Both the position numbers and the translations under genes were made by a program. Below, piece by piece: positions 14,899-63,643 of a stretch of 64,000 bases of DNA. Position 1 is the stretch's first letter, and each line of letters opens with the position of its first letter. The notes below the pieces were generated by a model that worked only from the letters and a program-made list of their open reading frames with translations, did not search any database and had not been told where the DNA came from. This DNA is from Mayamaea pseudoterrestris. Taxonomy: Eukaryota. The stretch is from positions 434,001 to 498,000 of the forward strand of contig BROI01000011.1 in the NCBI GenBank assembly GCA_027923505.1, written 5' to 3'.

Positions 14899-15303
14899 TT
14901 AATAGTATCGGTCAAAATCCTGACGGGGTGCTGGAGGAGCTCCTTGAACATTAGCACCGCCTGGCCCAGTAACTTGAGTCGCCTTGCGTTTGCCATTCTG
15001 GTCGGTCTCAAGCTTGAACTCGACGGCTTCACCTTCCGCCAAGCTGCGGAATCCAGCAGCTTGAATTGCTGACTGGTGCACAAAGACGTCGGGACCGCCA
15101 TTATCGGGAACTACGAATCCAAACCCCTTGGTAGAGTCGAACCACTTGACTGTTCCAGTCTCAACATCACCGCCACTCATGTGCAGCTGCTGAAGCGATT
15201 GTCGGGAAGTTGAAGCTAGCGGCTGAACTACAAATGCCGATGCCGAAACAAGAGCAAAGATCAGGACGAGAATGGGAGACTTGAGGAGTTGACGAAAAGA
15301 CAT
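14899..15303 (-). CDS. Plastid-targeted cold-shock domain (CSD) protein
   Basis: [28 protein letters not shown] is a signal peptide with an ASAF-type cleavage motif followed by a transit peptide. Then [15 protein letters not shown] (RNP1), DVFVHQSAI (RNP2) and [13 protein letters not shown]...[10 protein letters not shown]. Confidence 0.93.
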
Positions 15304-15650: not shown

Positions 15651-18600
15651 TTAAGGCAACCACATGGCAATAGCCAGTAAGTATGATCGGAACCGACCTG
15701 AGGTTTTGCTCTTCTTGTGAATTTGAATATTTTCACTCTTGCTTGTGCTTTTAAAATGCTTTGGAGAACTCTTATGTGGTATCCTCATCCCATTGTTTTC
15801 CTTCTCACCTTTGTGGATAAAGTAGCTAGATGCAAAATATCCTTTACCACCTTTTGATCCATGTCCACTGATACCAATGCCTTTGGATCCCTTCATGCCT
15901 CTTGGGCCTGATGTGTTGCCTTTTCCTTTGTGACTGTAAGCCCATCCATTAAAACCTTTTGAGTGCTTTGCCCTCTTGACACCTTTTGAGTGCTCAGACC
16001 ACTTGCCCCCTTTTGAGTGCTTGTAGCCCTTTGAACTCTTTGACCCTTTAACATCCTTGATGCCCATGCCCATGGCCATGCTCATTTTCATTACCTGCAT
16101 CATCTTCATTGTGTTCATCCGCATCATGTTGTGTGATGGCCGCAAGCCTGGAGGCCTGCGGACAGGGGACATGGGGGGTCTCATCATACGCATCATATTC
16201 ATCATGTTACCCATACCACCCATATTCATATTCATGGACATTTCATTACTAGATGGTCTTCTGCTTGGTTGAACCGGCTGTACTGGTGTTGGTTGTAGAA
16301 CAGGCACAGAGCTTGGTGAATTTGTGAAAGGTGACCTAATGCTGGGTTGTCCACTGGATGTAATTGTTGGAACAATAGACAAGTTAAGCAAAGTGGTAGA
16401 AGGAGCAACGCTGGATGGTCCATTGAGTGCTGCACTAGGTAAAATGCTTGGAACCTTGCTTGGCAAGGCACTGGGAGCATTCACAGCGGGTTGGGCGCTT
16501 GGCACCTTGCTCGGCAAGGCACTGGGAGCATTCACAGCGGGTTGGGCGCTTGGCACCTTGCTCGGCAAGGCACTGGGAGCATTCACAGCTGGTTGGGCGC
16601 TTGGCACCTTGCTCGGCAAGGCACTGGGAGCATTCACAGCTGGTTGAGCGCTTGGCACCTTGCTCGGCAAGGCACTGGGAGCATTCACAGCTGGTTGGGC
16701 GCTTGGCACCTTGCTCGGCAAGGCACTGGGAGCATTCACAGCTGGTTGGGCGCTTGGCACCTTGCTCGGCAAGGCACTGGGAGCATTCACAGGTGGATCG
16801 CTTGGCACCTTGCTCGGCAAGGCACTGGGAGCATTCACAGCTGGTTGGGCGCTTGGCACCTTGCTCGGCAAGGCACTGGGAGCATTCACAGCTGGTTGGG
16901 CGCTTGGCACCTTGCTCGGCAAGGCACTGGGAGCATTCACAGCTGGTTGGGCGCTTGGCACCTTGCTCGGCAAGGCACTGGGAGCATTCACAGCTGGTTG
17001 GGCGCTTGGCACCTTGCTCGGCAAGGCACTGGGAGCATTCACAGCTGGTTGGGTGCTTGGCACCTTGCTCGGCAAGGCACTGGGAGCATTCACAGCTGGT
17101 TGGGCGCTTGGCACCTTGCTCGGCAAGGCACTGGGAGCATTCACAGCTGGTTGGGCGCTTGGCACCTTGCTCGGCAAGGCACTGGGAGCATTCACAGCTG
17201 GTTGGGCGCTTGGCACCTTGCTCGGCAAGGCACTGGGAGCATTCACAGCTGGTTGGGCGCTTGGCACCTTGCTCGGCAAGGCACTGGGAGCATTCACAGC
17301 TGGTTGGGCGCTTGGCACCTTGCTCGGCAAGGCACTGGGAGCATTCACAGCTGGTTGGGCGCTTGGCACCTTGCTCGGCAAGGCACTGGGAGCATTCACA
17401 GCTGGTTGGGCGCTTGGCACCTTGCTCGGCAAGGCACTGGGAGCATTCACAGCTGGTTGGGCGCTTGGCACCTTGCTCGGCAAGGCACTGGGAGCATTCA
17501 CAGCTGGTTGGGCGCTTGGCACCTTGCTCGGCAAGGCACTGGGAGCATTCACAGCTGGTTGGGCGCTTGGCACCTTGCTCGGCAAGGCACTGGGAGCATT
17601 CACAGCTGGTTGGGCGCTTGGCACCTTGCTCGGCAAGGCACTGGGAGCATTCACAGCTGGTTGGGCGCTTGGCACCTTGCTCGGCAAGGCACTGGGAGCA
17701 TTCACAGCTGGTTGGGCGCTTGGCACCTTGCAGGCACTGGGAGCATTCACAGCTGGTTGGGGCTGCTTGCTCGGCAAGGCACTGGGAGCATTCACAGCTG
17801 GTTGGGCGCTTGGCACCTTGCTCGGCAAGGCACTGGGAGCATTCACAGCTGGTTGGGCGCTTGGCACCTTGCTCGGCAAGGCACTGGGAGCATTCACAGC
17901 TGGTTGGGCGCTTGGCACCTTGCTCGGCAAGGCACTGGGAGCATTCACAGCTGGTTGGGCGCTTGGCACCTTGCTCGGCAAGGCACTGGGAGCATTCACA
18001 GCTGGTTGGGCGCTTGGCACCTTGCTCGGCAAGGCACTGGGAGCATTCACAGCTGGTTGGGCGCTTGGCACCTTGCTCGGCAAGGCACTGGGAGCATTCA
18101 CAGCTGGTTGGGCGCTTGGCACCTTGCTCGGCAAGGCACTGGGAGCATTCACAGCTGGTTGGGCGCTTGGCACCTTGCTCGGCAAGGCACTGGGAGCATT
18201 CACAGCTGGTTGGGCGCTTGGCACCTTGCTCGGCAAGGCACTGGGAGCATTCACAGCTGGTTGGGCGCTTGGCACCTTGCTCGGCAAGGCACTGGGAGCA
18301 TTCACAGCTGGTTGGGCGCTTGGCACCTTGCTCGGCAAGGCACTGGGAGCATTCACAGCTGGTTGGGCGCTTGGCACCTTGCTCGGCAAGGCACTGGGAG
18401 CATTCACAGCTGGTTGGGCGCTTGGCACCTTGCTCGGCAAGGCACTGGGAGCATTCACAGCTGGTTGGGCGCTTGGCACCTTGCTCGGCAAGGCACTGGG
18501 AGCATTCACAGCTGGTTGGGCACTTGGCACCTTGCTCGGCAAGGCACTGGGAGCATTCACAGCTGGTTGGGCGCTTGGCACCTTGCTCGGCAAGGCACTG

Positions 18601-21600
18601 GGAGCATTCACAGCTGGTTGGGCGCTTGGCACCTTGCTCGGCAAGGCACTGGGAGCATTCACAGCTGGTTGGGCGCTTGGCACCTTGCTCGGCAAGGCAC
18701 TGGGAGCATTCACAGCTGGTTGGGCGCTTGGCACCTTGCTCGGCAAGGCACTGGGAGCATTCACAGCTGGTTGGGCGCTTGGCACCTTGCTCGGCAAGGC
18801 ACTGGGAGCATTCACAGCTGGTTGGGCGCTTGGCACCTTGCTCGGCAAGGCACTGGGAGCACACTGGGGCGAGCATTCACAGCTGGTTGGGCGCTTGGCA
18901 CCTTGCTCGGCAAGGCACTGGGAGCATTCACAGCTGGTTGAGCGCTTGGCACCTTGCTCGGCAAGGCACTGGGAGCATTCACAGCTGGTTGGGCGCTTGG
19001 CACCTTGCTCGGCAAGGCACTGGGAGCATTCACAGCTGGTTGGGCGCTTGGCACCTTGCTCAGCACTCGGGCTGCTCTCGGCAAGGCACTGGGAGCATTC
19101 ACAGCTGGTTGAGCGCTTGGCACCTTGCTCGGCAAGGCACTGGGAGCATTCACAGCTGGTTGGGCGCTTGGCACCTTGCTCGGCAAGGCACTGGGAGCAT
19201 TCACAGCTGGTTGAGCGCTTGGCACCTTGCTCGGCAAGGCACTGGGAGCATTCACAGCTGGTTGGGCGCTTGGCACCTTGCTCGGCAAGGCACTGGGAGC
19301 ATTCACAGCTGGTTGAGCGCTTGGAACCTTGCTCGGCAAGGCACTGGGAGCATTCACAGCTGGTTGAGCGCTTGGAACCTTGCTCGGCAAGGCACTGGGA
19401 GCATTCACAGCTGGTTGAGCGCTTGGAACCTTGCTCGGCAAGGCACTGGGAGCATCCACTGGTTGAGCGCTTGGAACCTTGCTCGGCAAGGCACTGGGAG
19501 CATCCACTGGTTGAGCGCTTGGAACCTTGCTCGGCAAGGCACTGGGAGCATCCACTGGTTGAGCGCTTGGAACCTTGCTCGGCAAGGCACTGGGAGCATC
19601 CACTGGTTGAGCGCTTGGAACCTTGCTCGGCAAGGCACTGGGAGCATCCACTGGTTGAGCGCTTGGAACCTTGCTCGGCAAGGCACTGGGAGCATCCACT
19701 GGTTGAGCGCTTGGAACCTTGCTCGGCAAGGCACTGGGAGCATCCACTGGTTGAGCGCTTGGAACCTTGCTCGGCAAGGCACTGGGAGCATCCACTGGTT
19801 GAGCGCTTGGAACCTTGCTCGGCAAGGCACTGGGAGCATCCACTGGTTGAGCGCTTGGAACCTTGCTCGGCAAGGCACTGGGAGCATCCACTGGTTGAGC
19901 GCTTGGAACCTTGCTCGGCAAGGCACTGGGAGCATCCACTGGTTGAGCGCTTGGAACCTTGCTCGGCAAGGCACTGGGAGCATCCACTGGTTGAGCGCTT
20001 GGAACCTTGCTCGGCAAGGCACTGGGAGCATCCACTGGTTGAGCGCTTGGAACCTTGCTCGGCAAGGCACTGGGAGCATCCACTGGTTGAGCGCTTGGAA
20101 CCTTGCTCGGCAAGGCACTGGGAGCATCCACTGGTTGAGCGCTTGGAACCTTGCTCGGCAAGGCACTGGGAGCATCCACTGGTTGAGCGCTTGGAACCTT
20201 GCTCGGCAAGGCACTGGGAGCATCCACTGGTTGAGCGCTTGGAACCTTGCTCGGCAAGGCACTGGGAGCATCCACTGGTTGAGCGCTTGGAACCTTGCTC
20301 GGCAAGGCACTGGGAGCATCCACTGGTTGAGCGCTTGGAACCTTGCTCGGCAAGGCACTGGGAGCATCCACTGGTTGAGCGCTTGGAACCTTGCTCGGCA
20401 AGGCACTGGGAGCATCCACTGGTTGAGCACTTGGAACCTTGCTCGGCAAGGCACTGGGAGCATCCACTGGTTGAGCGCTTGGAACCTTGCTCGGCAAGGC
20501 ACTGGGAGCATCCACTGGTTGAGCGCTTGGAACCTTGCTCGGCAAGGCACTGGGAGCATCCACTGGTTGAGCGCTTGGAACCTTGCTCGGCAAGGCACTG
20601 GGAGCATCCACTGGTTGAGCGCTTGGAACCTTGCTCGGCAAGGCACTGGGAGCATCCACTGGTTGAGCGCTTGGAACCTTGCTCGGCAAGGCACTGGGAG
20701 CATCCACTGGTTGAGCGCTTGGAACCTTGCTCGGCAAGGCACTGGGAGCATCCACTGGTTGAGCGCTTGGAACCTTGCTCGGCAAGGCACTGGGAGCATC
20801 CACTGGTTGAGCGCTTGGAACCTTGCTCGGCAAGGCACTGGGAGCATCCACTGGTTGAGCGCTTGGAACCTTGCTCGGCAAGGCACTGGGAGCATCCACT
20901 GGTTGAGCGCTTGGAACCTTGCTCGGCAAGGCACTGGGAGCATCACCTGGTTGAGCGCTTGGAACCTTGCTCGGCAAGGCACTGGGAGCATCCACAGCTG
21001 GTTGAGCGCTTGGAACCTTGCTCGGCAAGGCACTGGGAGCATCCACTGGTTGAGCGCTTGGAACCTTGCTCGGCAAGGCACTGGGAGCATCCACTGGTTG
21101 AGCGCTTGGAACCTTGCTCGGCAAGGCACTGGGAGCATCCACTGGTTGAGCGCTTGGAACCTTGCTTGGCAAGGCACTGGGAGCATCCACAGCTGGTTGA
21201 GCGCTTGGAACCTTGCTCGGCAAGGCACTGGGAGCATCCAAAGCTGGTTGAGCGCTTGGAACCTTGCTCGGCAAGGCACTGGGAGCATCCACAGCTGGTT
21301 GAGCGCTTGGAACCTTGCTCGGCAAGGCACTGGGAGCATCCACAGCTGGTTGAGCGCTTGGAACCTTGCTCGGCAAGGCACTGGGAGCATCCACAGCTGG
21401 TTGAGCGCTTGGAACCTTGCTCGGCAAGGCACTGGGAGCATCCACAGCTGGTTGAGCGCTTGGAACCTTGCTCGGCAAGGCACTGGGAGCATCCACAGCT
21501 GGTTGAGCGCTTGGAACCTTGCTCGGCAAGGCACTGGGAGCATCCACAGCTGGTTGAGCGCTTGGAACCTTGCTCGGCAAGGCACTGGGAGCATCCACAG

Positions 21601-24600
21601 CTGGTTGAGCGCTTGGAACCTTGCTCGGCAAGGCACTGGGAGCATCCACTGGTTGAGCGCTTGGAACCTTGCTCGGCAAGGCACTGGGAGCATCCACTGG
21701 TTGAGCGCTTGGAACCTTGCTCGGCAAGGCACTGGGAGCATCCACAGCTGGTTGAGCGCTTGGAACCTTGCTCGGCAAGGCACTGGGAGCATCCACAGCT
21801 GGTTGAGCGCTTGGAACCTTGCTCGGCAAGGCACTGGGAGCATCCACAGCTGGTTGAGCGCTTGGAACCTTGCTCGGCAAGGCACTGGGAGCATCCACTG
21901 GTTGAGCGCTTGGAACCTTGCTCGGCAAGGCACTGGGAGCATCCACTGGTTGGTCGCTTGGAACCTTGCTTGGCAAGGCACTGGGAGCATCCACTGGTTG
22001 AGCGCTTGGAACCTTGCTCGGCAAGGCACTGGGAGCATCCACTGGTTGAGCGCTTGGAACCTTGCTCGGCAAGGCACTGGGAGCATCCACTGGTTGAGCG
22101 CTTGGAACCTTGCTCGGCAAGGCACTGGGAGCATCCACTGGTTGAGCGCTTGGAACCTTGCTCGGCAAGGCACTGGGAGCATCCACTGGTTGAGCGCTTG
22201 GAACCTTGCTCGGCAAGGCACTGGGAGCATCCACTGGTTGAGCGCTTGGAACCTTGCTCGGCAAGGCACTGGGAGCATCCACTGGTTGAGCGCTTGGAAC
22301 CTTGCTCGGCAAGGCACTGGGAGCATCCACTGGTTGAGCGCTTGGAACCTTGCTCAGCAAGGCACTGGGAGCATCCACTGGTTGAGCGCTTGGAACCTTG
22401 CTCGGCAAGGCACTGGGAGCATCCACTGGTTGAGCGCTTGGAACCTTGCTCGGCAAGGCACTGGGAGCATCCACTGGTTGAGCGCTTGGAACCTTGCTCC
22501 GGCAAGGCACTGGGAGCATCCACTGGTTGAGCGCTTGGAACCTTGCTCGGCAAGGCACTGGGAGCATCCACTGGTTGAGCGCTTGGAACCTTGCTCGGCA
22601 AGGCACTGGGAGCATCCACTGGTTGAGCGCTTGGAACCTTGCTCGGCAAGGCACTGGGAGCATCCACTGGTTGAGCGCTTGGAACCTTGCTCGGCAAGGC
22701 ACTGGGAGCATCCACTGGTTGAGCGCTTGGAACCTTGCTCGGCAAGGCACTGGGAGCATCCACTGGTTGAGCGCTTGGAACCTTGCTCGGCAAGGCACTG
22801 GGAGCATCCACTGGTTGAGCGCTTGGAACCTTGCTCGGCAAGGCACTGGGAGCATCCACTGGTTGAGCGCTTGGAACCTTGCTCGGCAAGGCACTGGGAG
22901 CATCCACTGGTTGAGCGCTTGGAACCTTGCTCGGCAAGGCACTGGGAGCATCCACTGGTTGAGCGCTTGGAACCTTGCTCGGCAAGGCACTGGGAGCATC
23001 CACTGGTTGAGCGCTTGGAACCTTGCTCGGCAAGGCACTGGGAGCATCCACCACTGGTTGAGCGCTTGGAACCTTGCTCGGCAAGGCACTGGGAGCATCC
23101 ACAGCTGGTTGAGCGCTTGGAACCTTGCTCGGCAAGGCACTGGGAGCATCCACTGGTTGAGCGCTTGGAACCTTGCTCGGCAAGGCACTGGGAGCATTCA
23201 CAGCTGGTTGAGCGCTTGGAACCTTGCTTGGCAAGGCACTGGGAGCATCCACTGGTTGAGCGCTTGGAACCTTGCTCGGCAAGGCACTGGGAGCATCCAC
23301 TGGTTGAGCGCTTGGAACCTTGCTCGGCAAGGCACTGGGAGCATCCACTGGTTGAGCGCTTGGAACCTTGCTCGGCAAGGCACTGGGAGCATCCACTGGT
23401 TGAGCGCTTGGAACCTTGCTCGGCAAGGCACTGGGAGCATCCACTGGTTGAGCGCTTGGAACCTTGCTCGGCAAGGCACTGGGAGCATCCACTGGTTGAG
23501 CGCTTGGAACCTTGCTCGGCAAGGCACTGGGAGCATCCACTGGTTGAGCGCTTGGAACCTTGCTCGGCAAGGCACTGGGAGCATCCACTGGTTGAGCGCT
23601 TGGAACCTTGCTCGGCAAGGCACTGGGAGCATCCACTGGTTGAGCGCTTGGAACCTTGCTCGGCAAGGCACTGGGAGCATCCACTGGTTGAGCGCTTGGA
23701 ACCTTGCTCGGCAAGGCACTGGGAGCATCCACTGGTTGAGCGCTTGGAACCTTGCTCGGCAAGGCACTGGGAGCATCCACTGGTTGAGCGCTTGGAACCT
23801 TGCTCGGCAAGGCACTGGGAGCATCCACTGGTTGAGCGCTTGGAACCTTGCTCGGCAAGGCAGTGGGGGCATCCACTGGTTGAGCGCTTGGAACCTTGCT
23901 CGGCAAGGCACTGGGAGCATCCACTGGTTGAGCGCTTGGAACCTTGCTCGGCAAGGCACTGGGAGCATCCACTGGTTGAGCGCTTGGAACCTTGCTCGGC
24001 AAGGCACTGGGAGCATCCACTGGTTGAGCGCTTGGAACCTTGCTCGGCAAGGCACTGGGAGCATCCACTGGTTGAGCGCTTGGAACCTTGCTCGGCAAGG
24101 CACTGGGAGCATCCACTGGTTGAGCGCTTGGAACCTTGCTCGGCAAGGCACTGGGAGCATCCACTGGTTGAGCGCTTGGAACCTTGCTCGGCAAGGCACT
24201 GGGAGCATCCACTGGTTGAGCGCTTGGAACCTTGCTCGGCAAGGCACTGGGAGCATCCACAGCTGGTTGAGCGCTTGGAACCTTGCTCGGCAAGGCACTG
24301 GGAGCATCCACAGCTGGTTGAGCGCTTGGAACCTTGCTCGGCAAGGCACTGGGATCATGCCCTGGTTGAGCGCTTGGAACCTTGCTCGGCAAGGCACTGG
24401 GAGCATCCACTGGTTGAGCGCTTGGAACCTTGCTCGGCAAGGCACTGGGAGCATCCACTGGTTGAGCGCTTGGAACCTTGCTCGGCAAGGCACTGGGAGC
24501 ATCCACTGGTTGAGCGCTTGGAACCTTGCTCGGCAAGGCACTGGGAGCATCCACTGGTTGAGCGCTTGGAACCTTGCTCGGCAAGGCACTGGGAGCATCC

Positions 24601-27600
24601 ACTGGTTGAGCGCTTGGAACCTTGCTCGGCAAGGCACTGGGAGCATCCACTGGTTGAGCGCTTGGAACCTTGCTCGGCAAGGCACTGGGAGCATCCACTG
24701 GTTGAGCGCTTGGAACCTTGCTCGGCAAGGCACTGGGAGCATCCACTGGTTGAGCGCTTGGAACCTTGCTCGGCAAGGCACTGGGAGCATCCACTGGTTG
24801 AGCGCTTGGAACCTTGCTCGGCAAGGCACTGGGAGCATCCACTGGTTGAGCGCTTGGAACCTTGCTCGGCAAGGCACTGGGAGCATCCACTGGTTGAGCG
24901 CTTGGAACCTTGCTCGGCAAGGCACTGGGAGCATCCACTGGTTGAGCGCTTGGAACCTTGCTCGGCAAGGCACTGGGAGCATCCACTGGTTGAGCGCTTG
25001 GAACCTTTGCTCGGCAAGGCACTGGGAGCATCCACTGGTGGAGCGCTTGGAACCTTGCTCGGCAAGGCACTGGGAGCATCCACTGGTTGAGCGCTTGGAA
25101 CCTTGCTCGGCAAGGCACTGGGAGCATCCACTGGTGGAGCGCTTGGAACCTTGCTCGGCAAGGCACTGGGAGCATCCACTGGTTGAGCGCTTGGAACCTT
25201 GCTCGGCAAGGCACTGGGAGCATCCACTGGTTGAGCGCTTGGAACCTTGCTCGGCAAGGCACTGGGAGCATCCACTGGTTGAGCGCTTGGAACCTTGCTC
25301 GGCAAGGCACTGGGAGCATCCACTGGTTGAGCGCTTGGAACCTTGCTCGGCAAGGCACTGGGAGCATCCACTGGTTGAGCGCTTGGAACCTTGCTCGGCA
25401 AGGCACTGGGAGCATCCACTGGTTGAGCGCTTGGAACCTTGCTCGGCAAGGCACTGGGAGCATCCACTGGTTGAGCGCTTGGAACCTTGCTCGGCAAGGC
25501 ACTGGGAGCATCCACTGGTTGAGCGCTTGGAACCTTGCTCGGCAAGGCACTGGGAGCATCCACTGGTTGAGCGCTTGGAACCTTGCTCGGCAAGGCACTG
25601 GGAGCATCCACTGGTTGAGCGCTTGGAACCTTGCTCGGCAAGGCACTGGGAGCATCCACTGGTTGAGCGCTTGGAACCTTGCTCGGCAAGGCACTGGGAG
25701 CATCCACTGGTTGAGCGCTTGGAACCTTGCTCGGCAAGGCACTGGGAGCATCCACTGGTTGAGCGCTTGGAACCTTGCTCGGCAAGGCACTGGGAGCATC
25801 CAGCGGTTGAGCGCTTGGAACCTTGCTCGGCAAGGCACTGGGAGCATCCACTGGTTGAGCGCTTGGAACCTTGCTCGGCAAGGCACTGGGAGCATCCACT
25901 GGTTGAGCGCTTGGAACCTTGCTCGGCAAGGCACTGGGAGCATCCACTGGTTGAGCGCTTGGAACCTTGCTCGGCAAGGCACTGGGAGCATCCACTGGTT
26001 GAGCGCTTGGAACCTTGCTCGGCAAGGCACTGGGAGCATCCACTGGTTGAGCGCTTGGAACCTTGCTCGGCAAGGCACTGGGAGCATCCACTGGTTGAGC
26101 GCTTGGAACCTTGCTCGGCAAGGCACTGGGAGCATCCACTGGTTGAGCGCTTGGAACCTTGCTCGGCAAGGCACTGGGAGCATCCACTGGTTGAGCGCTT
26201 GGAACCTTGCTCGGCAAGGCACTGGGAGCATCCACTGGTTGAGCACTTGGAACCTTGCTCGGCAAGGCACTGGGAGCATCCACTGGTTGAGCGCTTGGAA
26301 CCTTGCTCGGCAAGGCACTGGGAGCATCCACTGGTTGAGCGCTTGGAACCTTGCTCGGCAAGGCACTGGGAGCATCCACTGGTTGAGCGCTTGGAACCTT
26401 GCTCGGCAAGGCACTGGGAGCATCCACTGGTTGAGCGCTTGGAACCTTGCTCGGCAAGGCACTGGGAGCATCCACTGGTTGAGCGCTTGGAACCTTGCTC
26501 GGCAAGGCACTGGGAGCATCCACTGGTTGAGCGCTTGGAACCTTGCTCGGCAAGGCACTGGGAGCATCCACTGGTTGAGCGCTTGGAACCTTGCTCGGCA
26601 AGGCACTGGGAGCATCCACAGGTTGAGCGCTTGGAACCTTGCTCGGCAAGGCACTGGGAGCATCCACTGGTTGAGCGCTTGGAACCTTGCTCGGCAAGGC
26701 ACTGGGAGCATCCACTGGTTGAGCGCTTGGAACCTTGCTCGGCAAGGCACTGGGAGCATCCACTGGTTGAGCGCTTGGAACCTTGCTCGGCAAGGCACTG
26801 GGAGCCACTGGTTGAGCGCTTGGAACCTTGCTCGGCAAGGCACTGGGAGCATCCACTGGTTGAGCGCTTGGAACCTTGCTCGGCAAGGCACTGGGAGCAT
26901 CCACTGGTTGAGCGCTTGGAACCTTGCTCGGCAAGGCACTGGGAGCATCCACTGGCTGAGCGCTTGGAACCTTGCTCGGCAAGGCACTGGGAGCATCCAC
27001 TGGTTGTGCGCTTGGAACCTTGCTCGGCAAGGCACTGGGAGCATCCACTGGTTGAGCGCTTGGAACCTTGCTCGGCAAGGCACTGGGAGCATCCACTGGT
27101 TGAGCGCTTGGAACCTTGCTCGGCAAGGCACTGGGAGCATCCACTGGTTGAGCGCTTGGAACCTTGCTCGGCAAGGCACTGGGAGCATCCACTTGTTGAG
27201 CGCTTGGAACCTTGCTCGGCAAGGCACTGGGAGCATTCACTGGTTGAGTGCTTGGAACCTTGCTCGGCAAGGCACCGGGAGCATCCACTGGTTGAGCGCT
27301 TGGAACCTTGCTCGGCAAGGCACTGGGAGCATCCACTGGTTGAGCGCTTGGAACCTTGCTCGGCAAGGCACTGGGAGCATCCACTGGTTGAGCGCTTGGA
27401 ACCTTGCTCGGCAAGGCACTGGGAGCATCCACTGGTTGAGCGCTTGGAACCTTGCTCGGCAAGGCACTGGGAGCATCCACTGGTTGAGCGCTTGGAACCT
27501 TGCTCGGCAAGGCACTGGGAGCATCCACTGGTTGAGCGCTTGGAACCTTGCTCGGCAAGGCACTGGGAGCATCCACTGGTTGAGCGCTTGGAACCTTGCT

Positions 27601-37668: not shown

Positions 37669-37756
37669 AAAACAAATCTTGGCAGTGTGCAGCGTACGTC
37701 AGAGGCGCCTAACAAAAACAAATCTTGGCAGTGTGCAGCGTTCGTCAGAGGCGCCT
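37669..37756. repeat. 46-bp tandem duplication (2 copies)
   Basis: aaaacaaatcttggcagtgtgcagcgt(a/t)cgtcagaggcgcct occurs twice; GGCAGTG starts at 37681 and 37727. Confidence 0.9.
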
Positions 37757-39778: not shown

Positions 39779-39886
39779 TCTTGAAGTAATAGGCTGACGT
39801 TGGCCGCACAACAAGTTTCTCAGCTGTGTTTCTCTTGAAGTAATAGGCTGCCGTTGGACGCACATCAGATTTCGCAGCTGTGTTTT
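39779..39886. repeat. 54-bp imperfect tandem duplication (2 copies)
   Basis: tcttgaagtaataggctg(a/c)cgttgg(c/a)cgcaca...cagctgtgttt occurs twice; TTGAAGTAAT starts at 39781 and 39835. Confidence 0.85.
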
Positions 39887-53800: not shown

Positions 53801-56800
53801 CAATGCCTTGCCGAGCAAGGTTCCAAGCGCTCAACCAGTGAATGCTCCCAGTGCCTTGCCGAGCAAGGTTCCAAGCGCTCAACCAGCTGTGAATGCTCCC
53901 AGTGCCTTGCCGAGCAAGGTTCCAAGCGCTCAACCAGTGGATGCTCCCAGTGCCTTGCCGAGCAAGGTTCCAAGCGCTCAACCAGTGAATGCTCCCAGTG
54001 CCTTGCCGAGCAAGGTTCCAAGCGCTCAACCAGTGAATGCTCCCAGTGCCTTGCCGAGCAAGGTTCCAAGCGCTCAACCAGTGAATGCTCCCAGTGCCTT
54101 GCCGAGCAAGGTTCCAAGCGCTCAACCAGTGAATGCTCCCAGTGCCTTGCCGAGCAAGGTTCCAAGCGCTCAACCAGTGAATGCTCCCAGTGCCTTGCCG
54201 AGCAAGGTTCCAAGCGCTCAACCAGTGAATGCTCCCAGTGCCTTGCCGAGCAAGGTTCCAAGCGCTCAACCAGTGAATGCTCCCAGTGCCTTGCCGAGCA
54301 AGGTTCCAAGCGCTCAACCAGTGAATGCTCCCAGTGCCTTGCCGAGCAAGGTTCCAAGCGCTCAACCAGTGAATGCTCCCAGTGCCTTGCCGAGCAAGGT
54401 TCCAAGCGCTCAACCAGTGAATGCTCCCAGTGCCTTGCCGAGCAAGGTTCCAAGCGCTCAACCAGTGAATGCTCCCAGTGCCTTGCCGAGCAAGGTTCCA
54501 AGCGCTCAACCAGTGAATGCTCCCAGTGCCTTGCCGAGCAAGGTTCCAAGCGCTCAACCAGTGAATGCTCCCAGTGCCTTGCCGAGCAAGGTTCCAAGCG
54601 CTCAACCAGTGGATGCTCCCAGTGCCTTGCCGAGCAAGGTTCCAAGCGCTCAACCAGTGGATGCTCCCAGTGCCTTGCCGAGCAAGGTTCCAAGCGCTCA
54701 ACCAGTGAATGCTCCCAGTGCCTTGCCGAGCAAGGTTCCAAGCGCTCAACCAGTGGATGCTCCCAGTGCCTTGCCGAGCAAGGTTCCAAGCGCTCAACCA
54801 GTGAATGCTCCCAGTGCCTTGCCGAGCAAGGTTCCAAGCGCTCAACCAGTGAATGCTCCCAGTGCCTTGCCGAGCAAGGTTCCAAGCGCTCAACCAGTGA
54901 ATGCTCCCAGTGCCTTGCCGAGCAAGGTTCCAAGCGCTCAACCAGTGAATGCTCCCAGTGCCTTGCCGAGCAAGGTTCCAAGCGCTCAACCAGTGAATGC
55001 TCCCAGTGCCTTGCCGAGCAAGGTTCCAAGCGCTCAACCAGTGAATGCTCCCAGTGCCTTGCCGAGCAAGGTTCCAAGCGCTCAACCAGTGAATGCTCCC
55101 AGTGCCTTGCCGAGCAAGGTTCCAAGCGCTCAACCAGTGAATGCTCCCAGTGCCTTGCCGAGCAAGGTTCCAAGCGCTCAACCAGTGAATGCTCCCAGTG
55201 CCTTGCCGAGCAAGGTTCCAAGCGCTCAACCAGTGAATGCTCCCAGTGCCTTGCCGAGCAAGGTTCCAAGCGCTCAACCAGTGAATGCTCCCAGTGCCTT
55301 GCCGAGTTTCCAAGCCCAACCAGTGATGCCCCAGGTTCCAAGCGCTCAACCAGTGAATGCCCCCAGTGCCTTGCCGAGCAAGGTTCCAAGCGCTCAACCA
55401 GTGAATGCCCCCAGTGCCTTGCCGAGCAAGGTTCCAAGCGCCCAACCAGCCGTGAATGCCCCCAGTGCCTTGCCGAGCAAGGTTCCAAGCGCTCAACCAG
55501 CGAATGCTCCCAGTGCCTTGCCGAGCAAGGTTCCAAGCGCTCAACCAGCGAATGCTCCCAGTGCCTTGCCGAGCAAGGTTCCAAGCGCTCAACCAGTGAA
55601 TGCTCCCAGTGCCTTGCCGAGCAAGGTTCCAAGCGCTCAACCAGTGAATGCTCCCAGTGCCTTGCCGAGCAAGGTTCCACGGTTCCAAGCGCTCAACCAG
55701 TGAATGCTCCCAGTGCCTTGCCGAGCAAGGTTCCAAGCGCTCAACCAGTGAATGCTCCCAGTGCCTTGCCGAGCAAGGTTCCAAGCGCTCAACCAGTGAA
55801 TGCTCCCAGTGCCTTGCCGAGCAAGGTTCCAAGCGCTCAACCAGTGAATGCTCCCAGTGCCTTGCCGAGCAAGGTTCCAAGCGCTCAACCAGTGAATGCT
55901 CCCAGTGCCTTGCCGAGCAAGGTTCCAAGCGCTCAACCAGTGAATGCTCCCAGTGCCTTGCCGAGCAAGGTTCCAAGCGCTCAACCAGTGAATGCTCCCA
56001 GTGCCTTGCCGAGCAAGGTTCCAAGCGCTCAACCAGTGAATGCTCCCAGTGCCTTGCCGAGCAAGGTTCCAAGCGCTCAACCAGTGAATGCTCCCAGTGC
56101 CTTGCCGAGCAAGGTTCCAAGCGCTCAACCAGTGAATGCTCCCAGTGCCTTGCCGAGCAAGGTTCCAAGCGCTCAACCAGTGAATGCTCCCAGTGCCTTG
56201 CCGAGCAAGGTTCCAAGCGCTCAACCAGTGAATGCTCCCAGTGCCTTGCCGAGCAAGGTTCCAAGCGCTCAACCAGTGAATGCTCCCAGTGCCTTGCCGA
56301 GCAAGGTTCCAAGCGCTCAACCAGTGAATGCTCCCAGTGCCTTGCCGAGCAAGGTTCCAAGCGCTCAACCAGTGAATGCTCCCAGTGCCTTGCCGAGCAA
56401 GGTTCCAAGCGCTCAACCAGTGAATGCTCCCAGTGCCTTGCCAAGCAAGGTTCCAAGCGCTCAACCAGTGAATGCCCCCAGTGCCTTGCCGAGCAAGGTT
56501 CCAAGCGCTCAACCAGTGAATGCTCCCAGTGCCTTGCCAAGCAAGGTTCCAAGCGCTCAACCAGTGAATGCTCCCAGTGCCTTGCCGAGCAAGGTTCCAA
56601 GCGCCCAACCAGCCGTGAATGCTCCCAGTGCCTTGCCGAGCAAGGTTCCAAGCGCCCAACCAGCCGTGAATGCTCCCAGTGCCTTGCCGAGCAAGGTTCC
56701 AAGCGCTCAACCAGTGAATGCTCCCAGTGCCTTGCCGAGCAAGGTTCCAAGCGCTCAACCAGTGAATGCTCCCAGTGCCTTGCCGAGCAAGGTTCCAAGC

Positions 56801-59800
56801 GCTCAACCAGTGAATGCTCCCAGTGCCTTGCCGAGCAAGGTTCCAAGCGCTCAACCAGTAAATGCTCCCAGTGCCTTGCCGAGCAAGGTTCCAAGCGCTC
56901 AACCAGTGAATGCTCCCAGTGCCTTGCCGAGCAAGGTTCCAAGCGCTCAACCAGTGAATGCTCCCAGTGCCTTGCCGAGCAAGGTTCCAAGCGCTCAACC
57001 AGTGAATGCTCCCAGTGCCTTGCCGAGCAAGGTTCCAAGCGCTCAACCAGTGAATGCTCCCAGTGCCTTGCCGAGCAAGGTTCCAAGCGCTCAACCAGTG
57101 AATGCTCCCAGTGCCTTGCCGAGCAAGGTTCCAAGCGCTCAACCAGTGAATGCTCCCAGTGCCTTGCCGAGCAAGGTTCCAAGCGCTCAACCAGTGAATG
57201 CTCCCAGTGCCTTGCCGAGCAAGGTTCCAAGCGCTCAACCAGTGAATGCTCCCAGTGCCTTGCCGAGCAAGGTTCCAAGCGCTCAACCAGTGAATGCTCC
57301 CAGTGCCTTGCCGAGCAAGGTTCCAAGCGCTCAACCAGTGAATGCTCCCAGTGCCTTGCCGAGCAAGGTTCCAAGCGCTCAACCAGTGAATGCTCCCAGT
57401 GCCTTGCCGAGCAAGGTTCCAAGCGCTCAACCAGTGAATGCTCCCAGTGCCTTGCCGAGCAAGGTTCCAAGCGCTCAACCAGTGAATGCTCCCAGTGCCT
57501 TGCCGAGCAAGGTTCCAAGCGCTCAACCAGTGAATGCTCCCAGTGCCTTGCCGAGCAAGGTTCCAAGCGCTCAACCAGTGAATGCTCCCAGTGCCTTGCC
57601 GAGCAAGGTTCCAAGCGCTCAACCAGTGAATGCTCCCAGTGCCTTGCCGAGCAAGGTTCCAAGCGCTCAACCAGTGAATGCTCCCAGTGCCTTGCCGAGC
57701 AAGGTTCCAAGCGCTCAACCAGTGAATGCTCCCAGTGCCTTGCCGAGCAAGGTTCCAAGCGCTCAACCAGTGAATGCTCCCAGTGCCTTGCCGAGCAAGG
57801 TTCCAAGCGCTCAACCAGTGAATGCTCCCAGTGCCTTGCCGAGCAAGGTTCCAAGCGCTCAACCAGTGAATGCTCCCAGTGCCTTGCCGAGCAAGGTTCC
57901 AAGCGCTCAACCAGTGAATGCTCCCAGTGCCTTGCCGAGCAAGGTTCCAAGCGCTCAACCAGTGAATGCTCCCAGTGCCTTGCCGAGCAAGGTTCCAAGC
58001 GCTCAACCAGTGAATGCTCCCAGTGCCTTGCCGAGCAAGGTTCCAAGCGCTCAACCAGTGAATGCTCCCAGTGCCTTGCCGAGCAAGGTTCCAAGCGCTC
58101 AACCAGTGAATGCTCCCAGTGCCTTGCCGAGCAAGGTTCCAAGCGCTCAACCAGTGAATGCTCCCAGTGCCTTGCCGAGCAAGGTTCCAAGCGCTCAACC
58201 AGTGAATGCTCCCAGTGCCTTGCCGAGCAAGGTTCCAAGCGCTCAACCAGTGAATGCTCCCAGTGCCTTGCCGAGCAAGGTTCCAAGCGCTCAACCAGTG
58301 AATGCTCCCAGTGCCTTGCCGAGCAAGGTTCCAAGCGCTCAACCAGTGAATGCTCCCAGTGCCTTGCCGAGCAAGGTTCCAAGCGCTCAACCAGTGAATG
58401 CTCCCAGTGCCTTGCCGAGCAAGGTTCCAAGCGCTCAACCAGTGAATGCTCCCAGTGCCTTGCCGAGCAAGGTTCCAAGCGCTCAACCAGTGAATGCTCC
58501 CAGTGCCTTGCCGAGCAAGGTTCCAAGCGCTCAACCAGTGAATGCTCCCAGTGCCTTGCCGAGCAAGGTTCCAAGCGCTCAACCAGTGAATGCTCCCAGT
58601 GCCTTGCCGAGCAAGGTTCCAAGCGCTCAACCAGTGAATGCTCCCAGTGCCTTGCCGAGCAAGGTTCCAAGCGCTCAACCAGTGAATGCTCCCAGTGCCT
58701 TGCCGAGCAAGGTTCCAAGCGCTCAACCAGTGAATGCTCCCAGTGCCTTGCCGAGCAAGGTTCCAAGCGCTCAACCAGTGAATGCTCCCAGTGCCTTGCC
58801 GAGCAAGGTTCCAAGCGCTCAACCAGTGAATGCTCCCAGTGCCTTGCCGAGCAAGGTTCCAAGCGCTCAACCAGTGAATGCTCCCAGTGCCTTGCCGAGC
58901 AAGGTTCCAAGCGCTCAACCAGTGAATGCTCCCAGTGCCTTGCCGAGCAAGGTTCCAAGCGCTCAACCAGTGAATGCTCCCAGTGCCTTGCCGAGCAAGG
59001 TTCCCAGCGCTCAACCAGTGAATGCTCCCAGTGCCTTGCCGAGCAAGGTTCCCAGCGCTCAACCAGTGAATGCTCCCAGTGCCTTGCCGAGCAAGGTTCC
59101 AAGCGCTCAACCAGTGAATGCTCCCAGTGCCTTGCCGAGCAAGGTTCCAAGCGCTCAACCAGTGAATGCTCCCAGTGCCTTGCCGAGCAAGGTTCCAAGC
59201 GCTCAACCAGTGAATGCTCCCAGTGCCTTGCCGAGCAAGGTTCCAAGCGCTCAACCAGTGAATGCTCCCAGTGCCTTGCCGAGCAAGGTTCCAAGCGCTC
59301 AACCAGTGAATGCTCCCAGTGCCTTGCCGAGCAAGGTTCCAAGCGCTCAACCAGTGAATGCTCCCAGTGCCTTGCCGAGCAAGGTTCCAAGCGCTCAACC
59401 AGTGAATGCTCCCAGTGCCTTGCCGAGCAAGGTTCCAAGCGCTCAACCAGTGAATGCTCCCAGTGCCTTGCCGAGCAAGGTTCCAAGCGCTCAACCAGTG
59501 AATGCTCCCAGTGCCTTGCCGAGCAAGGTTCCAAGCGATCAACCAGTGAATGCTCCCAGTGCCTTGCCGAGCAAGGTTCCAAGCGCTCAACCAGTGAATG
59601 CTCCCAGTGCCTTGCCGAGCAAGGTTCCAAGCGCTCAACCAGTGAATGCTCCCAGTGCCTTGCCGAGCAAGGTTCCAAGCGCTCAACCAGTGAATGCTCC
59701 CAGTGCCTTGCCGAGCAAGGTTCCAAGCGCTCAACCAGTGAATGCTCCCAGTGCCTTGCCGAGCAAGGTTCCAAGCGCTCAACCAGTGAATGCTCCCAGT

Positions 59801-62800
59801 GCCTTGCCGAGCAAGGTTCCAAGCGCTCAACCAGTGAATGCTCCCAGTGCCTTGCCGAGCAAGGTTCCAAGCGCTCAACCAGTGGATGCTCCCAGTGCCT
59901 TGCCGAGCAAGGTTCCAAGCGCTCAACCAGTGGATGCTCCCAGTGCCTTGCCGAGCAAGGTTCCAAGCGCTCAACCAGTGGATGCTCCCAGTGCCTTGCC
60001 GAGCAAGGTTCCAAGCGCTCAACCAGTGAATGCTCCCAGTGCCTTGCCGAGCAAGGTTCCAAGCGCTCAACCAGTGGATGCTCCCAGTGCCTTGCCGAGC
60101 AAGGTTCCAAGCGCTCAACCAGTGGATGCTCCCAGTGCCTTGCCGAGCAAGGTTCCAAGCGCTCAACCAGTGGATGCTCCCAGTGCCTTGCCGAGCAAGG
60201 TTCCAAGCGCTCAACCAGTGGATGCTCCCAGTGCCTTGCCGAGCAAGGTTCCAAGCGCTCAACCATTGGATGCTCCCAGTGCCTTGCCGAGCAAGGTTCC
60301 AAGCGCTCAACCAGCGGATGCTCCCAGTGCCTTGCCGAGCAAGGTTCCAAGCGCTCAACCAGTGGATGCTCCCAGTGCCTTGCCGAGCAAGGTTCCAAGC
60401 GCTCAACCATTGGATGCTCCCAGTGCCTTGCCGAGCAAGGTTCCAAGCGCTCAACCAGTGAATGCTCCCAGTGCCTTGCCGAGCAAGGTTCCAAGCGCTC
60501 AACCAGTGAATGCTCCCAGTGCCTTGCCGAGCAAGGTTCCAAGCGCTCAACCAGTGAATGCTCCCAGTGCCTTGCCGAGCAAGGTTCCAAGCGCTCAACC
60601 AGTGAATGCTCCCAGTGCCTTGCCGAGCAAGGTTCCAAGCGCTCAACCAGTGAATGCTCCCAGTGCCTTGCCGAGCAAGGTTCCAAGCGCTCAACCAGTG
60701 AATGCTCCCAGTGCCTTGCCGAGCAAGGTTCCAAGCGCTCAACCAGTGAATGCTCCCAGTGCCTTGCCGAGCAAGGTTCCAAGCGCTCAACCAGTGGATG
60801 CTCCCAGTGCCTTGCCGAGCAAGGTTCCAAGCGCTCAACCAGTGGATGCTCCCAGTGCCTTGCCGAGCAAGGTTCCAAGCGCTCAACCAGTGGATGCTCC
60901 CAGTGCCTTGCCGAGCAAGGTTCCAAGCGCTCAACCAGTGAATGCTCCCAGTGCCTTGCCGAGCAAGGTTCCAAGCGCTCAACCAGTGGATGCTCCCAGT
61001 GCCTTGCCGAGCAAGGTTCCAAGCGCTCAACCAGTGAATGCTCCCAGTGCCTTGCCGAGCAAGGTTCCAAGCGCTCAACCAGTGGATGCTCCCAGTGCCT
61101 TGCCGAGCAAGGTTCCAAGCGCTCAACCAGTGAATGCTCCCAGTGCCTTGCCGAGCAAGGTTCCAAGCGCTCAACCAGTGGATGCTCCCAGTGCCTTGCC
61201 GAGCAAGGTTCCAAGCGCTCAACCAGTGGATGCTCCCAGTGCCTTGCCGAGCAAGGTTCCAAGCGCTCAACCAGTGGATGCTCCCAGTGCCTTGCCGAGC
61301 AAGGTTCCAAGCGCTCAACCAGTGAATGCTCCCAGTGCCTTGCCGAGCAAGGTTCCAAGCGCTCAACCAGTGAATGCTCCCAGTGCCTTGCCGAGCAAGG
61401 TTCCAAGCGCTCAACCAGTGAATGCTCCCAGTGCCTTGCCGAGCAAGGTTCCAAGCGCTCAACCAGTGAATGCTCCCAGTGCCTTGCCGAGCAAGGTTCC
61501 AAGCGCTCAACCAGTGAATGCTCCCAGTGCCTTGCCGAGCAAGGTTCCAAGCGCTCAACCAGTGAATGCTCCCAGTGCCTTGCCGAGCAAGGTTCCAAGC
61601 GCTCAACCAGTGAATGCTCCCAGTGCCTTGCCGAGCAAGGTTCCAAGCGCTCAACCAGTGAATGCTCCCAGTGCCTTGCCGAGCAAGGTTCCAAGCGCTC
61701 AACCAGTGAATGCTCCCAGTGCCTTGCCGAGCAAGGTTCCAAGCGCTCAACCAGTGAATGCTCCCAGTGCCTTGCCGAGCAAGGTTCCAAGCGCTCAACC
61801 AGTGAATGCTCCCAGTGCCTTGCCGAGCAAGGTTCCAAGCGCTCAACCAGTGAATGCTCCCAGTGCCTTGCCGAGCAAGGTTCCAAGCGCCCAACCAGCC
61901 GTGGATGCTCCCAGTGCCTTGCCGAGCAAGGTTCCAAGCGCCCAACCAGCCGTGAATGCTCCCAGTGCCTTGCCGAGCAAGGTTCCAAGCGCCCAACCAG
62001 CCGTGAATGCTCCCAGTGCCTTGCCGAGCAAGGTTCCAAGCGCCCAACCAGCCGTGAATGCTCCCAGTGCCTTGCCAAGCAAGGTTCCAAGCGCCCAACC
62101 AGCCGTGAATGCACCCAGTGCCTTGCCGAGCAAGGTTCCAAGCGCCCAACCAGCCGTGAATGCACCCAGTGCCTTGCCGAGCAAGGTTCCAAGCGCCCAA
62201 CCAGCTGTGAATGCTCCCAGTGCCTTGCCGAGCAAGGTGCCAAGCGCCCAACCAGCTGTGAATGCTCCCAGTGCCTTGCCGAGCAAGGTGCCAAGCGCCC
62301 AACCAGCTGTGAATGCTCCCAGTGCCTTGCCGAGCAAGGTTCCAAGTGCCCAACCAGCCGTGAATGCTCCCAGTGCCTTGCCTAGCAAGGTTCCTTTGCT
62401 GACAATTCGACCCACTGCGCGGCAACAGCCTACGCGCAAACCATTGGCGAGTACCATGTCAATGAATATGAATATGGGAGGCAGTGGAGTACCAACAAGA
62501 CAGCCCGTTGCACCGTCTTTAACCAAAAAACCAACAACCAAGCCCATCAAGATACCGAGTTCATCGCCACAGGTAAAGACTCCCACAGTGGAGGGCATGA
62601 AAATGGGCATGAGTAATCCAACAGCTACTCCGGCTGCCTTCAGTAAAGGTAATGGAAGCAAGGCAGGAGGAAAGGGTGGAGTTAGCAAGCTACCAGTAAA
62701 AGGCGGCAGCAACGCTGGAAAAGCTGGAGGTGGCAATTCAGAAGGAAAGGGCAGCAATAGCAGCTTAAGCAAAGGCGGTAGCAAGAGCACTCCAAAAGGA

Positions 62801-63643
62801 CCATGGAAAGGAAGCAAAAAGGTTGCTGAAAGTAAGATGATGAAAGGAGGCTCAGGAGGTGTTGTCAATAATTTGGGAGGAAAAGGCAGCAAAGGTAATT
62901 CGATAGAAAGTGGCAACAAAAGCTTTTCGGTGGGAGCGAGTAAAGGAAAGACAAGAGATGGTGGAAGTAAGAACGCAAAAGGATCGAAAGGAGATGGAGG
63001 AACAAGCGCCACGGTTACAAAGTCATTAATTCAGTCAATCATTGACGGCAAGAATAATTGGGACGGAATGGCTAAAGGCAAGATGATGTTCACTGGAAGT
63101 AAAAACGTTAAACGTGCAACCGGGGGAGTTGAAGACGCAAGAACGAAGATTACGAATTCAGTAATCCAGTCAATAGTTGGCAACATGAACATACGACCAA
63201 TTAAAAGTGCAAATAACTATGCACAAAAAGGAAAAGGTGTGAAAGGTTCCAAGGCAAATACATCGAAAGGGAGTGCTGTGCAATATTTTGCTGGTGTTTA
63301 TATTGTTCCAGAGAATAGACTTGCCTCGTCTTCAGCACTGAAGCCGCCGGTGTCAATCGTTCCGAAACCATCGAAAGATCAGTCTCCCGCTAAAGTGGCG
63401 ACAAATTCGCGCGAACGAGGCCGCGAGCAAGCAGAGTCCACTCGAGCCACCAACTATTCCTCTGCTTCGTACGAAGACAGCAAAAGCACCATTGCTGGAT
63501 ATCAGTCCATCTTGGTTGCACTTGCAAGTGTTTTTGGCGTGCTGAGCGTTGCATTGTGGCGCAGCCATCGATCGCACAACGGCAAATGGAAGCGCCAGGC
63601 TTCACGCAAGCGCAAGGCTGTCCAGTCCGTTTACCTAGAGTAA
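41836..63643 (+). CDS. Gene B: giant type I membrane-anchored Pro/Ser-rich mucin-like repeat protein (about 7,260 codons as assembled, about 4,490 if the 8.3-kb duplication is collapsed); two frameshifts as assembled
   Basis: MTKSFIIATLLLGASQTFTD signal peptide (upstream ATGs at 41800 and 41830), Cys-patterned domain, RQLQ, about 19.7 kb of 16-aa repeats, MSMNMNMGG, K/G/S-rich tail, TM helix YQSILVALASVFGVLSVALW, basic cytosolic tail, TAA 63643. The PS frame runs through ORFs 41788..47376, 47373..55703 and 47321..63643. Confidence 0.82.
42641..62395 (+). repeat. Coding minisatellite array B, about 410 units, mainly 48 bp (PSALPSKVPSAQPVNA), with 51-bp units at the 3' end
   Basis: Directly visible and the reverse complement of array A. 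51-bp PAVNA units cluster at about 61870-62395. The unit count is estimated from length. Confidence 0.97.
44078..60731 (+). repeat. 8,327-bp higher-order tandem duplication inside array B (about 44078..52404 and 52405..60731)
   Basis: Rare variant units recur at a constant offset of 8,327: 44111/52438, 44701/53028, 45457/53784, 46981/55308, 47351/55678 and 51211/59538. A truncated junction unit KVPPSAL lies at about 52405. Confidence 0.93.

Follow-up and report, generated by a model that had tools for sequence, protein, structure and literature searches.

What do two long, repeat-dominated genes lying head to head in a diatom genome encode, and how long are their products? The question is raised by a 64,000-nucleotide (nt) stretch of Mayamaea pseudoterrestris DNA (assembly GCA_027923505.1, contig BROI01000011.1, positions 434,001 to 498,000 of the forward strand), referred to below as the window and numbered from its first base. 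The window is eukaryotic DNA with a GC content of about 48%; its open reading frames (ORFs) mostly look intronless, and it contains two GC-rich blocks with opposite GC skew. A first-pass annotation had placed here a divergent pair of paralogous genes for giant surface proteins. The divergent orientation was confirmed: gene A (15651-32972) is read from the minus strand and gene B (41836-63643) from the plus strand. Features of their sequences argue, with a probability that we put at about 55%, for proteins of the secretory pathway that consist mainly of a Pro-Ser stalk, micrometres in scale, with a tetrapeptide period of the PSxx type. Such proteins would probably form sugar-coated stalks at the cell surface.

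Anatomy of the two genes

Both genes present the same order of parts: a putative signal peptide of the form MTK..ATLLL, a head domain with the cysteine motif C..NGV.R.CR.GSCQ, an R.LQ sequence, the repeat, the motif MSMNMNMGG and a Lys/Gly/Ser-rich tail with a YFAxxY motif. All six modules named by the first-pass annotation are thus present; the list was incomplete in that A has an additional module, 873 residues of degenerate PSxx sequence. A full membrane helix followed by a basic tail occurs only in B, as had been stated. The signal peptides of both proteins were recognized by eye from their form rather than with a predictor.

The most distinctive part is the stalk. In the homogeneous arrays the encoded unit is PSALPSKVPSAQPV[N/D]A, which consists of the four tetrapeptides PSAL, PSKV, PSAQ and PV[N/D]A, three of them of the PSxx type. 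In the degenerate tract of A, successive P[ST] dipeptides are spaced by four residues in 204 of the 212 intervals and the longest unbroken run comprises 66 tetrapeptides. Both kinds of sequence passed the Pfam PT disordered repeat (PF04886; cut-off 26.2 bits), the A tract with 169.2 bits (E 1.2e-50) and the first 400 residues of the B array with 193.3 bits (E 3.5e-58); PF04886 is a compositional repeat class, and membership in it is no proof of common descent. The account of very long Pro/Ser stalks on proteins of secretory-pathway type, one anchored and the other not, agrees with these sequence features.

A stalk of this kind is described for the TLP-4 glycofibril: its chain is linear, is made of P(S/T)xx repeats, bears two glycans on 3,4-dihydroxyproline and one on the next Ser/Thr, and rises by 12.4 Å per repeat (PMC11725842). 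The same report describes P(S/T)xx repeats as frequent, or enriched, in diatoms; the longest such protein that it gives, from Nitzschia inconspicua, has 6,077 residues and 667 PSxx repeats, and KAG7367681.1 of Nitzschia inconspicua is an example of the type (PMC11725842). With TLP-4 the present proteins share long unbroken PSxx repeats in a diatom protein (213 tetrapeptides in the A tract), and the expected chemistry (dihydroxyproline and serine O-glycans) and rod length would fit as well. At 12.4 Å per tetrapeptide, the stalks would measure approximately 1.6 µm in A and 2.0 µm in B, or 1.2 µm in B if one copy of an internal duplication (see below) is left out. There are also differences. TLP-4 has no gene assigned to it, so that membership here is by pattern only; every fourth tetrapeptide of our arrays is PV[N/D]A, and 17-residue units fall out of register. 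Furthermore, modification and fibril were seen for TLP-4, whereas the present proteins are known from sequence alone.

Gene A begins with an ATG at 32972 and ends with a TAA at 15653-15651, with four frame changes as assembled. The predicted signal peptide (MTKLNQLATATLLLCCISQA, 32913-32972) is followed by a head of about 240 residues (32199-32912) that has six cysteines in common with B, carries the cysteine motif as CEPNGVLRQCRGGGSCQ (32589-32639) and ends in RALQ (32199-32210). Next come the degenerate PSxx tract (29571-32189), with 213 P[ST] dipeptides, and the homogeneous array (16446-29567). Cut at unit anchors, the array yields 266 units, 188 of 48 base pairs (bp), 71 of 51 bp and seven odd ones; Tandem Repeats Finder reports a period of 48, 269.3 copies and 97% matches. 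The 48-bp D variant predominates, and N-variant units of 51 bp appear as the 3' end is approached. The tail (15654-16472, 273 residues) comprises MSMNMNMGG (16215-16241), which opens a Met-rich stretch with 23 methionines in 62 residues (16056-16241), then the lysine cluster KDVKGSKSSKGYKHSKGGK (16002-16058), YFASSY (15822-15839) and finally YLLAIAMWLP (15654-15683), which is the end of the protein and aligns to the membrane helix of B. Downstream of the stop codon we found no exon that could supply a membrane helix, just an ORF of cold-shock type.

Three minor observations concern gene A. The degenerate tract contains an 842-nt duplication (29578-30416 versus 30568-31385, 91.7% identity), which predates the homogeneous array. 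A glycosylphosphatidylinositol signal at the C-terminus was considered and dropped, the hydrophobic end being only some 10 residues long. A parallel between the Met-rich stretch and copper-binding "Mets" motifs, which we take to be an analogy, was likewise dropped.

Gene B is likely to start at the ATG at 41836 (MTKSF), although earlier in-frame ATGs occur at 41800 and 41830, and it ends with a TAA at 63641-63643, with two frame changes as assembled. Its signal peptide and head (41836-42639) include MTKSFIIATLLLGASQT (41836-41886), the cysteine motif CRSNGVVRRCRSGSCQ (42214-42261) and RQLQ (42619-42630). Directly after the head comes the array (42639-62394), mostly of the 48-bp N variant. It was cut into 409 units (386 of 48 bp, 18 of 51 bp and five odd) and scored by Tandem Repeats Finder as 410.6 copies with 97% matches. 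The tail (62369-63640, 424 residues) carries MSMNMNMGG (62456-62482), lysine clusters (62783-62845 and 63227-63268), YFAGVY (63284-63301) and the membrane helix SILVALASVFGVLSVALW (63506-63559), followed by a basic, putatively cytoplasmic tail of 27 residues (63560-63640). Hydrophobicity peaks in the 19-residue window QSILVALASVFGVLSVALW, with a mean Kyte-Doolittle value of 1.97. The start of gene B is very polymorphic: a 432-base contig covering 41587-42018 shows 15 differences.

R.LQ occurs just once per head; it lies about 240 residues after the signal peptide and a few residues short of the stalk. RXL is described as a processing site in silaffins, cingulins, silacidins, frustulins and SAPs (PMC4557024, PMC5647440). 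Because the single R.LQ directly precedes the stalk, the sequence suggests that the head may be removed at this putative site, as a pro-domain or by shedding.

In the model that we favour, the signal peptide would direct both proteins into the endoplasmic reticulum. The P-S dipeptides would be hydroxylated (3,4-dihydroxyproline is made by diatoms) and O-glycosylated, and the stalk would become an extended, protease-protected, glycan-coated rod as in the TLP-4 glycofibril. Processing, which is likely at the RxLQ site, may take off the cysteine-bearing head. The C-terminal module, with its methionine motif, lysine clusters and aromatic motif, would fix the rod to the wall or to silica. B would additionally be held in the membrane by its single helix; A, having lost most of this helix, would be released or held by the wall only. 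The anatomy and the PSxx period are read directly from the DNA, whereas modifications, processing and location are predicted.

Coding constraint and concerted evolution of the arrays

The length of an ORF is no evidence of coding at this locus because most frames of the 48-bp unit, on either strand, are free of stop codons. For the same reason, the many giant overlapping ORFs in the region are by-products and not genes. Spurious examples from 42595-62425 include a 3,407-residue ORF on the minus strand (45457-55680) and one that spans 47321-63643 and reads SKRSTSECSQCLAEQG. Gene callers will yield spurious giant proteins here.

The variation between units was more informative. The 48- and 51-bp units show 49 distinct single-base variants. 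In the PSALPS frame 24 of these leave the residue unchanged, where 24.5% would be expected (p = 1.8e-4); in the other two frames the numbers of synonymous variants are 8 and 9. Adding an alanine codon and making two synonymous changes turns the 48-bp unit into the 51-bp one. Both unique tails stay open in the frame of the last array segment, over 273 codons in A and 424 in B, and other alleles or strains, represented by DNA contigs from public sequencing runs, carry an in-frame 3-bp deletion in the A head. Altogether, these data are evidence for the arrays being coding, or having been so until very recently.

Outside the repeats, A and B are related at the protein level. Their heads align at 25% identity, with 37% identity over the 46 residues of the core (C..NGV.R.CR.GSCQ..P). 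Their tails have motifs in common in identical order, including a second methionine motif (MKMSMAMGMG versus MKMGMS), and the last residues of A, FRSYL-LAIAMW, align to the helix of B with a nine-residue gap. The two genes are diverged paralogues, and A looks like a derivative from which most of the anchor and the entire cytoplasmic tail have disappeared. The earlier designation of the pair as a two-component system, however, claims more than adjacency and paralogy, its only grounds, can carry.

The arrays show a different picture. The commonest 48-bp units of A (D variant) and B (N variant) differ at one base out of 48. The D variant makes up 155 of the 261 anchor-delimited units of A and 37 of the 405 of B; the N variant accounts for 300 of the 405 in B and for none in A. 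Both arrays shift to 51-bp units towards their 3' ends, and the longest exact stretch common to both is 236 bp. A blastn comparison of the non-repeat parts, by contrast, returned only 26 nt at MSMNMNMGG, apart from the final array bases at the ends of the tails. Near-identical arrays between heads and tails that have diverged past recognition at the DNA level point to concerted evolution. Because selection on the protein cannot keep synonymous sites identical, the arrays must have been homogenized between the genes, by conversion or exchange, with heads and tails free to diverge. In our model, unequal exchange within each array and gene conversion between the two would keep the inverted arrays alike. 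The locus is a clean case of concerted evolution confined to the repeats of two strongly diverged paralogues.

The degenerate tract is absent from B, while in A the array runs on from it in register. This comparison suggests that the unit originated when 16 residues of such a PSxx tract were amplified.

Coding minisatellites that differ in copy number but are kept similar from one paralogue to the next are also found in surface glycoproteins of yeasts, namely the FLO adhesins and the Candida ALS adhesins. The present arrays differ from these in being inverted neighbours 13 kilobases (kb) apart and in being far longer (13 and 20 kb).

The geometry of the locus allows a bolder proposal. The arrays, 13 and 20 kb long, are inverted relative to each other and enclose a 13-kb cassette with both heads, both promoters and the ORF-free spacer. 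From this geometry it follows that an in-register crossover between the arrays would invert the cassette, so that the head of A would come to sit on the anchored tail and that of B on the anchorless one. While geometry and homogenization are observed, the inversion itself is predicted. The locus would then act as a switch for the heads of surface fibrils and, in a raphid diatom, the anchored form would be a candidate for the membrane-spanning connection of adhesive strands to the actomyosin motor. We consider this a long shot.

Frame breaks and array length

Several points weigh against the proposal that A and B encode full-length secreted Pro-Ser stalks. As assembled, the PSALPS frame shifts four times in A: at a garbled 47-bp unit near 28619 (-1), at single extra bases near 25023 and 22511 (+1 each) and at a 14-bp insert near 18919 (+14). 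In B it shifts twice, each time through an 8-bp insert that makes a 56-bp unit; the two units, at 47329 and 55656, are identical. Each of these units lies within one copy of a perfect 8.3-kb duplication, and the break inside it either predates a real duplication or belongs to an artefact. The period itself is imperfect: PVxA replaces PSxx in a quarter of the tetrapeptides of the unit, and the 17-residue variant does not keep to a spacing of four. In the first 46 codons of B, six of the eight listed allelic differences change the residue and two are silent; these differences were judged from 40 of the 69 recorded on 32000-42645. The public sequencing runs listed for this stretch include no RNA run. 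KxxK motifs are not significantly enriched in the B tail (10 against 6.5 in shuffles, with 185 of 2,000 shuffles as high). Finally, an AlphaFold model of the A head from a two-row alignment was unusable (mean predicted local distance difference test score 32.6), the heads and tails gave no relatives with which conservation could be tested, and the databases searched hold few diatoms.

The four shifts of A add up to a multiple of three, so that its head and tail share a frame, while in B head and tail lie in different frames as assembled. Uninterrupted ORFs from the start codons extend over about 1,911 codons in A and about 1,846-1,858 in B. The first-pass figure of rods of 4,000 or more residues did not hold up, since it would need all six frame breaks to be assembly errors and neither gene is a continuous ORF. 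Programmed frameshifting and introns were dropped as bridges over the breaks: inserts of 8 and 14 bp and single bases are not introns, and there was no hint of a slippery site.

It is possible, if doubtful, that the breaks are real. In that event only the first ~1,850-1,910 codons would be translated, giving tailless secreted Pro-Ser proteins, or else both genes would be young pseudogenes with minisatellite arrays. The sheer number of breaks, four in A and two in B, is in line with this explanation, and so is their nature, insertions of 8 and 14 bp and garbled units being atypical of single-base consensus errors. Flanking genes are intact ORFs, which indicates good base accuracy outside the repeats, and the listed differences in the B head mostly change residues. 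However, two of the A breaks are +1 changes that lengthen short runs (AA to AAA, G to GG), an error that consensus sequences often contain where reads cannot be placed during polishing. The open tails are another objection: by (61/64)^n, reading frames of 273 and 424 codons would arise by chance with probabilities of about 2e-6 and 1e-9, so that any disabling must be very recent. Unit variation also leans towards synonymous changes in the PSALPS frame even though most of the A array lies beyond the first break. We prefer to regard the frame breaks of the stalk genes as assembly errors or recent lesions.

An alternative that leaves the genes real is that the lengths and internal structure of the arrays are in part assembly artefacts, the true arrays being shorter or different. 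This applies above all to the tandem duplication in the B array (44078-60732, plus strand), two copies of 8,327 bp without a mismatch, each with one frame-breaking unit. Because 44078-52405 recurs without mismatch at an offset of 8,327 bp (8,328 consecutive identical positions), part of the length of B may be very recent or artefactual. Exactly two identical copies are found in an array whose units otherwise vary, and short-read contigs, which in the public runs are a few hundred bases long here, cannot span such arrays. On the other hand, the copies meet at a 27-bp unit (52383) that is out of unit register yet in frame. Overlap-based joining would not be expected to produce such a junction, which we infer to fit a real mutation better than a misjoin and which in that respect favours real breaks. 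Nor does the window contain any N that would mark a contig join. We regard this alternative as tenable but rather unlikely.

Comparison with known proteins and surroundings of the locus

Motifs of diatom wall proteins, as these are defined in the literature (PMC9650480, PMC4557024, PMC5647440), were correctly noted in the first-pass annotation: an RxL site and lysine clusters are present in both proteins. Pentalysine clusters, with five lysines in 12-14 residues, and regions enriched in lysine, of which KSGKGSSSKGSKGSSKSSK is an example, are described as targeting silaffins and cingulins to silica (PMC9650480). The pentalysine definition applies to residues 139-157 of the A tail and to residues 139-159 and 287-300 of the B tail. 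KxxK occurs 14 times in the A tail against 3.0 in shuffles, none of 2,000 shuffles being as high. With silaffins and cingulins A and B have in common the signal peptide, RxL, KxxK and lysine clusters rich in serine and glycine, with aromatic residues between the clusters in the A tail. The known proteins, as described, are small to mid-sized and lack a Pro-Ser stalk (PMC4557024, PMC9650480), and we found no sequence homology to them. B alone can be set beside SAP1-3, by order of parts and not by sequence: signal peptide, RXL, Ser-rich lumenal part, one helix and a short cytoplasmic part (PMC5647440). SAPs are, however, defined in that description by a conserved cytoplasmic segment of 28 residues directly after the helix. 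The cytoplasmic tail of B has 27 basic residues, and sizes differ by an order of magnitude.

These likenesses could mean that A and B form silica or are embedded in it, in the sense of silaffins, cingulins or SAPs, with B in the membrane of the silica-deposition vesicle and its lumenal lysine clusters ending in silica, and that they are not primarily adhesion or coat fibrils. The signal peptide, the RxL site, lysine clusters close to the lysine-enriched regions of cingulins (PMC9650480) and the SAP-like order of B (PMC5647440) would all suit this role, which is nevertheless improbable given that a Pro-Ser stalk, unlike anything described for those families, makes up more than 90% of each protein and that KxxK enrichment is absent from the B tail.

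Similar in overall build to the Pro-Ser stalk proteins proposed here are two components of the adhesive trails of Craspedostauros australis, CaTrailin4 and Ca5609; the trails are described as rich in dihydroxyproline and carbohydrate (bioRxiv 10.1101/2023.03.06.531300; PMC11420354). The CaTrailin4 gene is reported to be intronless and 28,951 bp long, and Ca5609 to exceed 1 MDa (same sources). The likeness, drawn from published descriptions and not from sequence comparison, extends to the signal peptide, a very long and apparently intronless gene, a repetitive Pro/Thr/Ser-rich bulk, six-cysteine modules and a length near 2 µm; theirs, too, needed long reads for gene models. There are three differences. 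The trailin domain called Choice-of-Anchor-A (CAA; PF20597) was not detected in heads or tails by a Pfam scan at E ≤ 0.01. The cysteine module is a single N-terminal head here and consists of interspersed repeats there. Lastly, B is apparently membrane-anchored while CAA proteins are described as being without an anchor (10.1101/2023.03.06.531300). Trailins and Ca5609 are also marked by a C-terminal region that is conserved in raphid pennate diatoms; our searches with the B tail gave no usable match. CaFAP1, a mucin-like protein associated with the frustule, is likewise a diatom cell-surface glycoprotein with Pro/Thr/Ser-rich and Cys-rich parts (10.1101/2023.03.06.531300; PMC11420354), but according to its description it alternates domains and repeats occupy about 23% of the protein, as opposed to one head and one stalk of more than 90% in A and B.

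Other classes of Pro- or Ser-rich protein fit less well. The Ser-Pro(3-5) pattern of plant-type extensins and hydroxyproline-rich glycoproteins is missing, SPPP occurring zero times in the PSxx tract of A and no such motif in the array unit. The same Pfam scan found no VWD, C8 or cystine-knot domain of animal gel-forming mucins in heads or tails.

Giant Pro/Thr/Ser-rich extracellular proteins of diatoms (10.1101/2023.03.06.531300) and PSxx proteins (PMC11725842) have already been published, which restricts the earlier suggestion of an undescribed system to the family of heads and tails. What is new is the family of heads and tails, the homogenization of arrays between inverted paralogues and the joining of a PSxx stalk with lysine clusters and an anchor. 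If full-length proteins exist, the locus would supply a genetically tractable gene pair for a type of PSxx glycan-coated fibril so far obtained from pond water without a gene. A single protein would join a PSxx stalk, lysine clusters of silaffin/cingulin type and, in B, a membrane anchor, and the question of how micrometre-long surface fibrils are anchored to the diatom wall or membrane would become testable.

The family had not been recognized in the first pass, and our searches for relatives of the heads and tails gave none. Pfam assigned no family to the heads or tails of either protein. No relatives were found for the A head among longer proteins or for the B tail among proteins of similar length, and an exact look-up of four ORFs in a protein collection returned nothing. 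The B head, compared with 1.84 billion cluster representatives, gave one match, a 3,261-residue repeat protein with 18 weak stretches at 29% identity, which was judged spurious. A metagenome scan with the head alignment produced 174 pattern matches, none of them confirmed, and one with a 36-base piece of the unit produced none. The ESM Atlas had no usable match for the head or tail of B; searches of PDB sequences with the two alignments, one of heads and one of tails, returned zero matches and two at E 0.38-0.68. The peptides PSALPSK, VPSAQPV, SAQPVNAPS and MSMNMNMGG appear in no paper of the searchable literature. Little weight can be put on these blanks, since an ordinary flanking gene with a cNMP-binding domain likewise matched a single relative (34% identity); they reflect thin coverage of diatoms rather than orphan status.

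The two genes have a common upstream spacer of about 8.9 kb between their start codons (32973-41835). It contains no ORF longer than 186 residues. Scans of about 8.7 kb of it for Rfam families, tRNAs, repeats and Pfam domains found nothing, and no transposon-like repeats were seen; two small two-copy tandem repeats (37665-37756 and 39779-39885) are the only ones present. The spacer seems long for a region with two promoters, neighbouring genes elsewhere in the window being closely packed. Four public runs from two studies cover 32000-42645 evenly with DNA-like contigs of a few hundred bases each. Contigs from two runs of two studies skip 144 bp at 37000-37145, and contigs from two runs of one study skip 123 bp at 40516-40640; the two skipped pieces are probably indel alleles.

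The flanking ORFs, which encode cNMP-binding domains and give weak PH, RING and HA matches in the Pfam scan, look like ordinary eukaryotic genes; the weak HA match would agree with a diatom genome. Directly downstream of gene A, at about 14650-14900 on the minus strand, lies the ORF that resembles a cold-shock domain, as judged from its translation. Further on, two adjacent minus-strand ORFs with cNMP-binding domains occupy 10936-13570. They are separated by 50 bp and the upstream one ends in a partial domain; the two may be one gene with a short intron.

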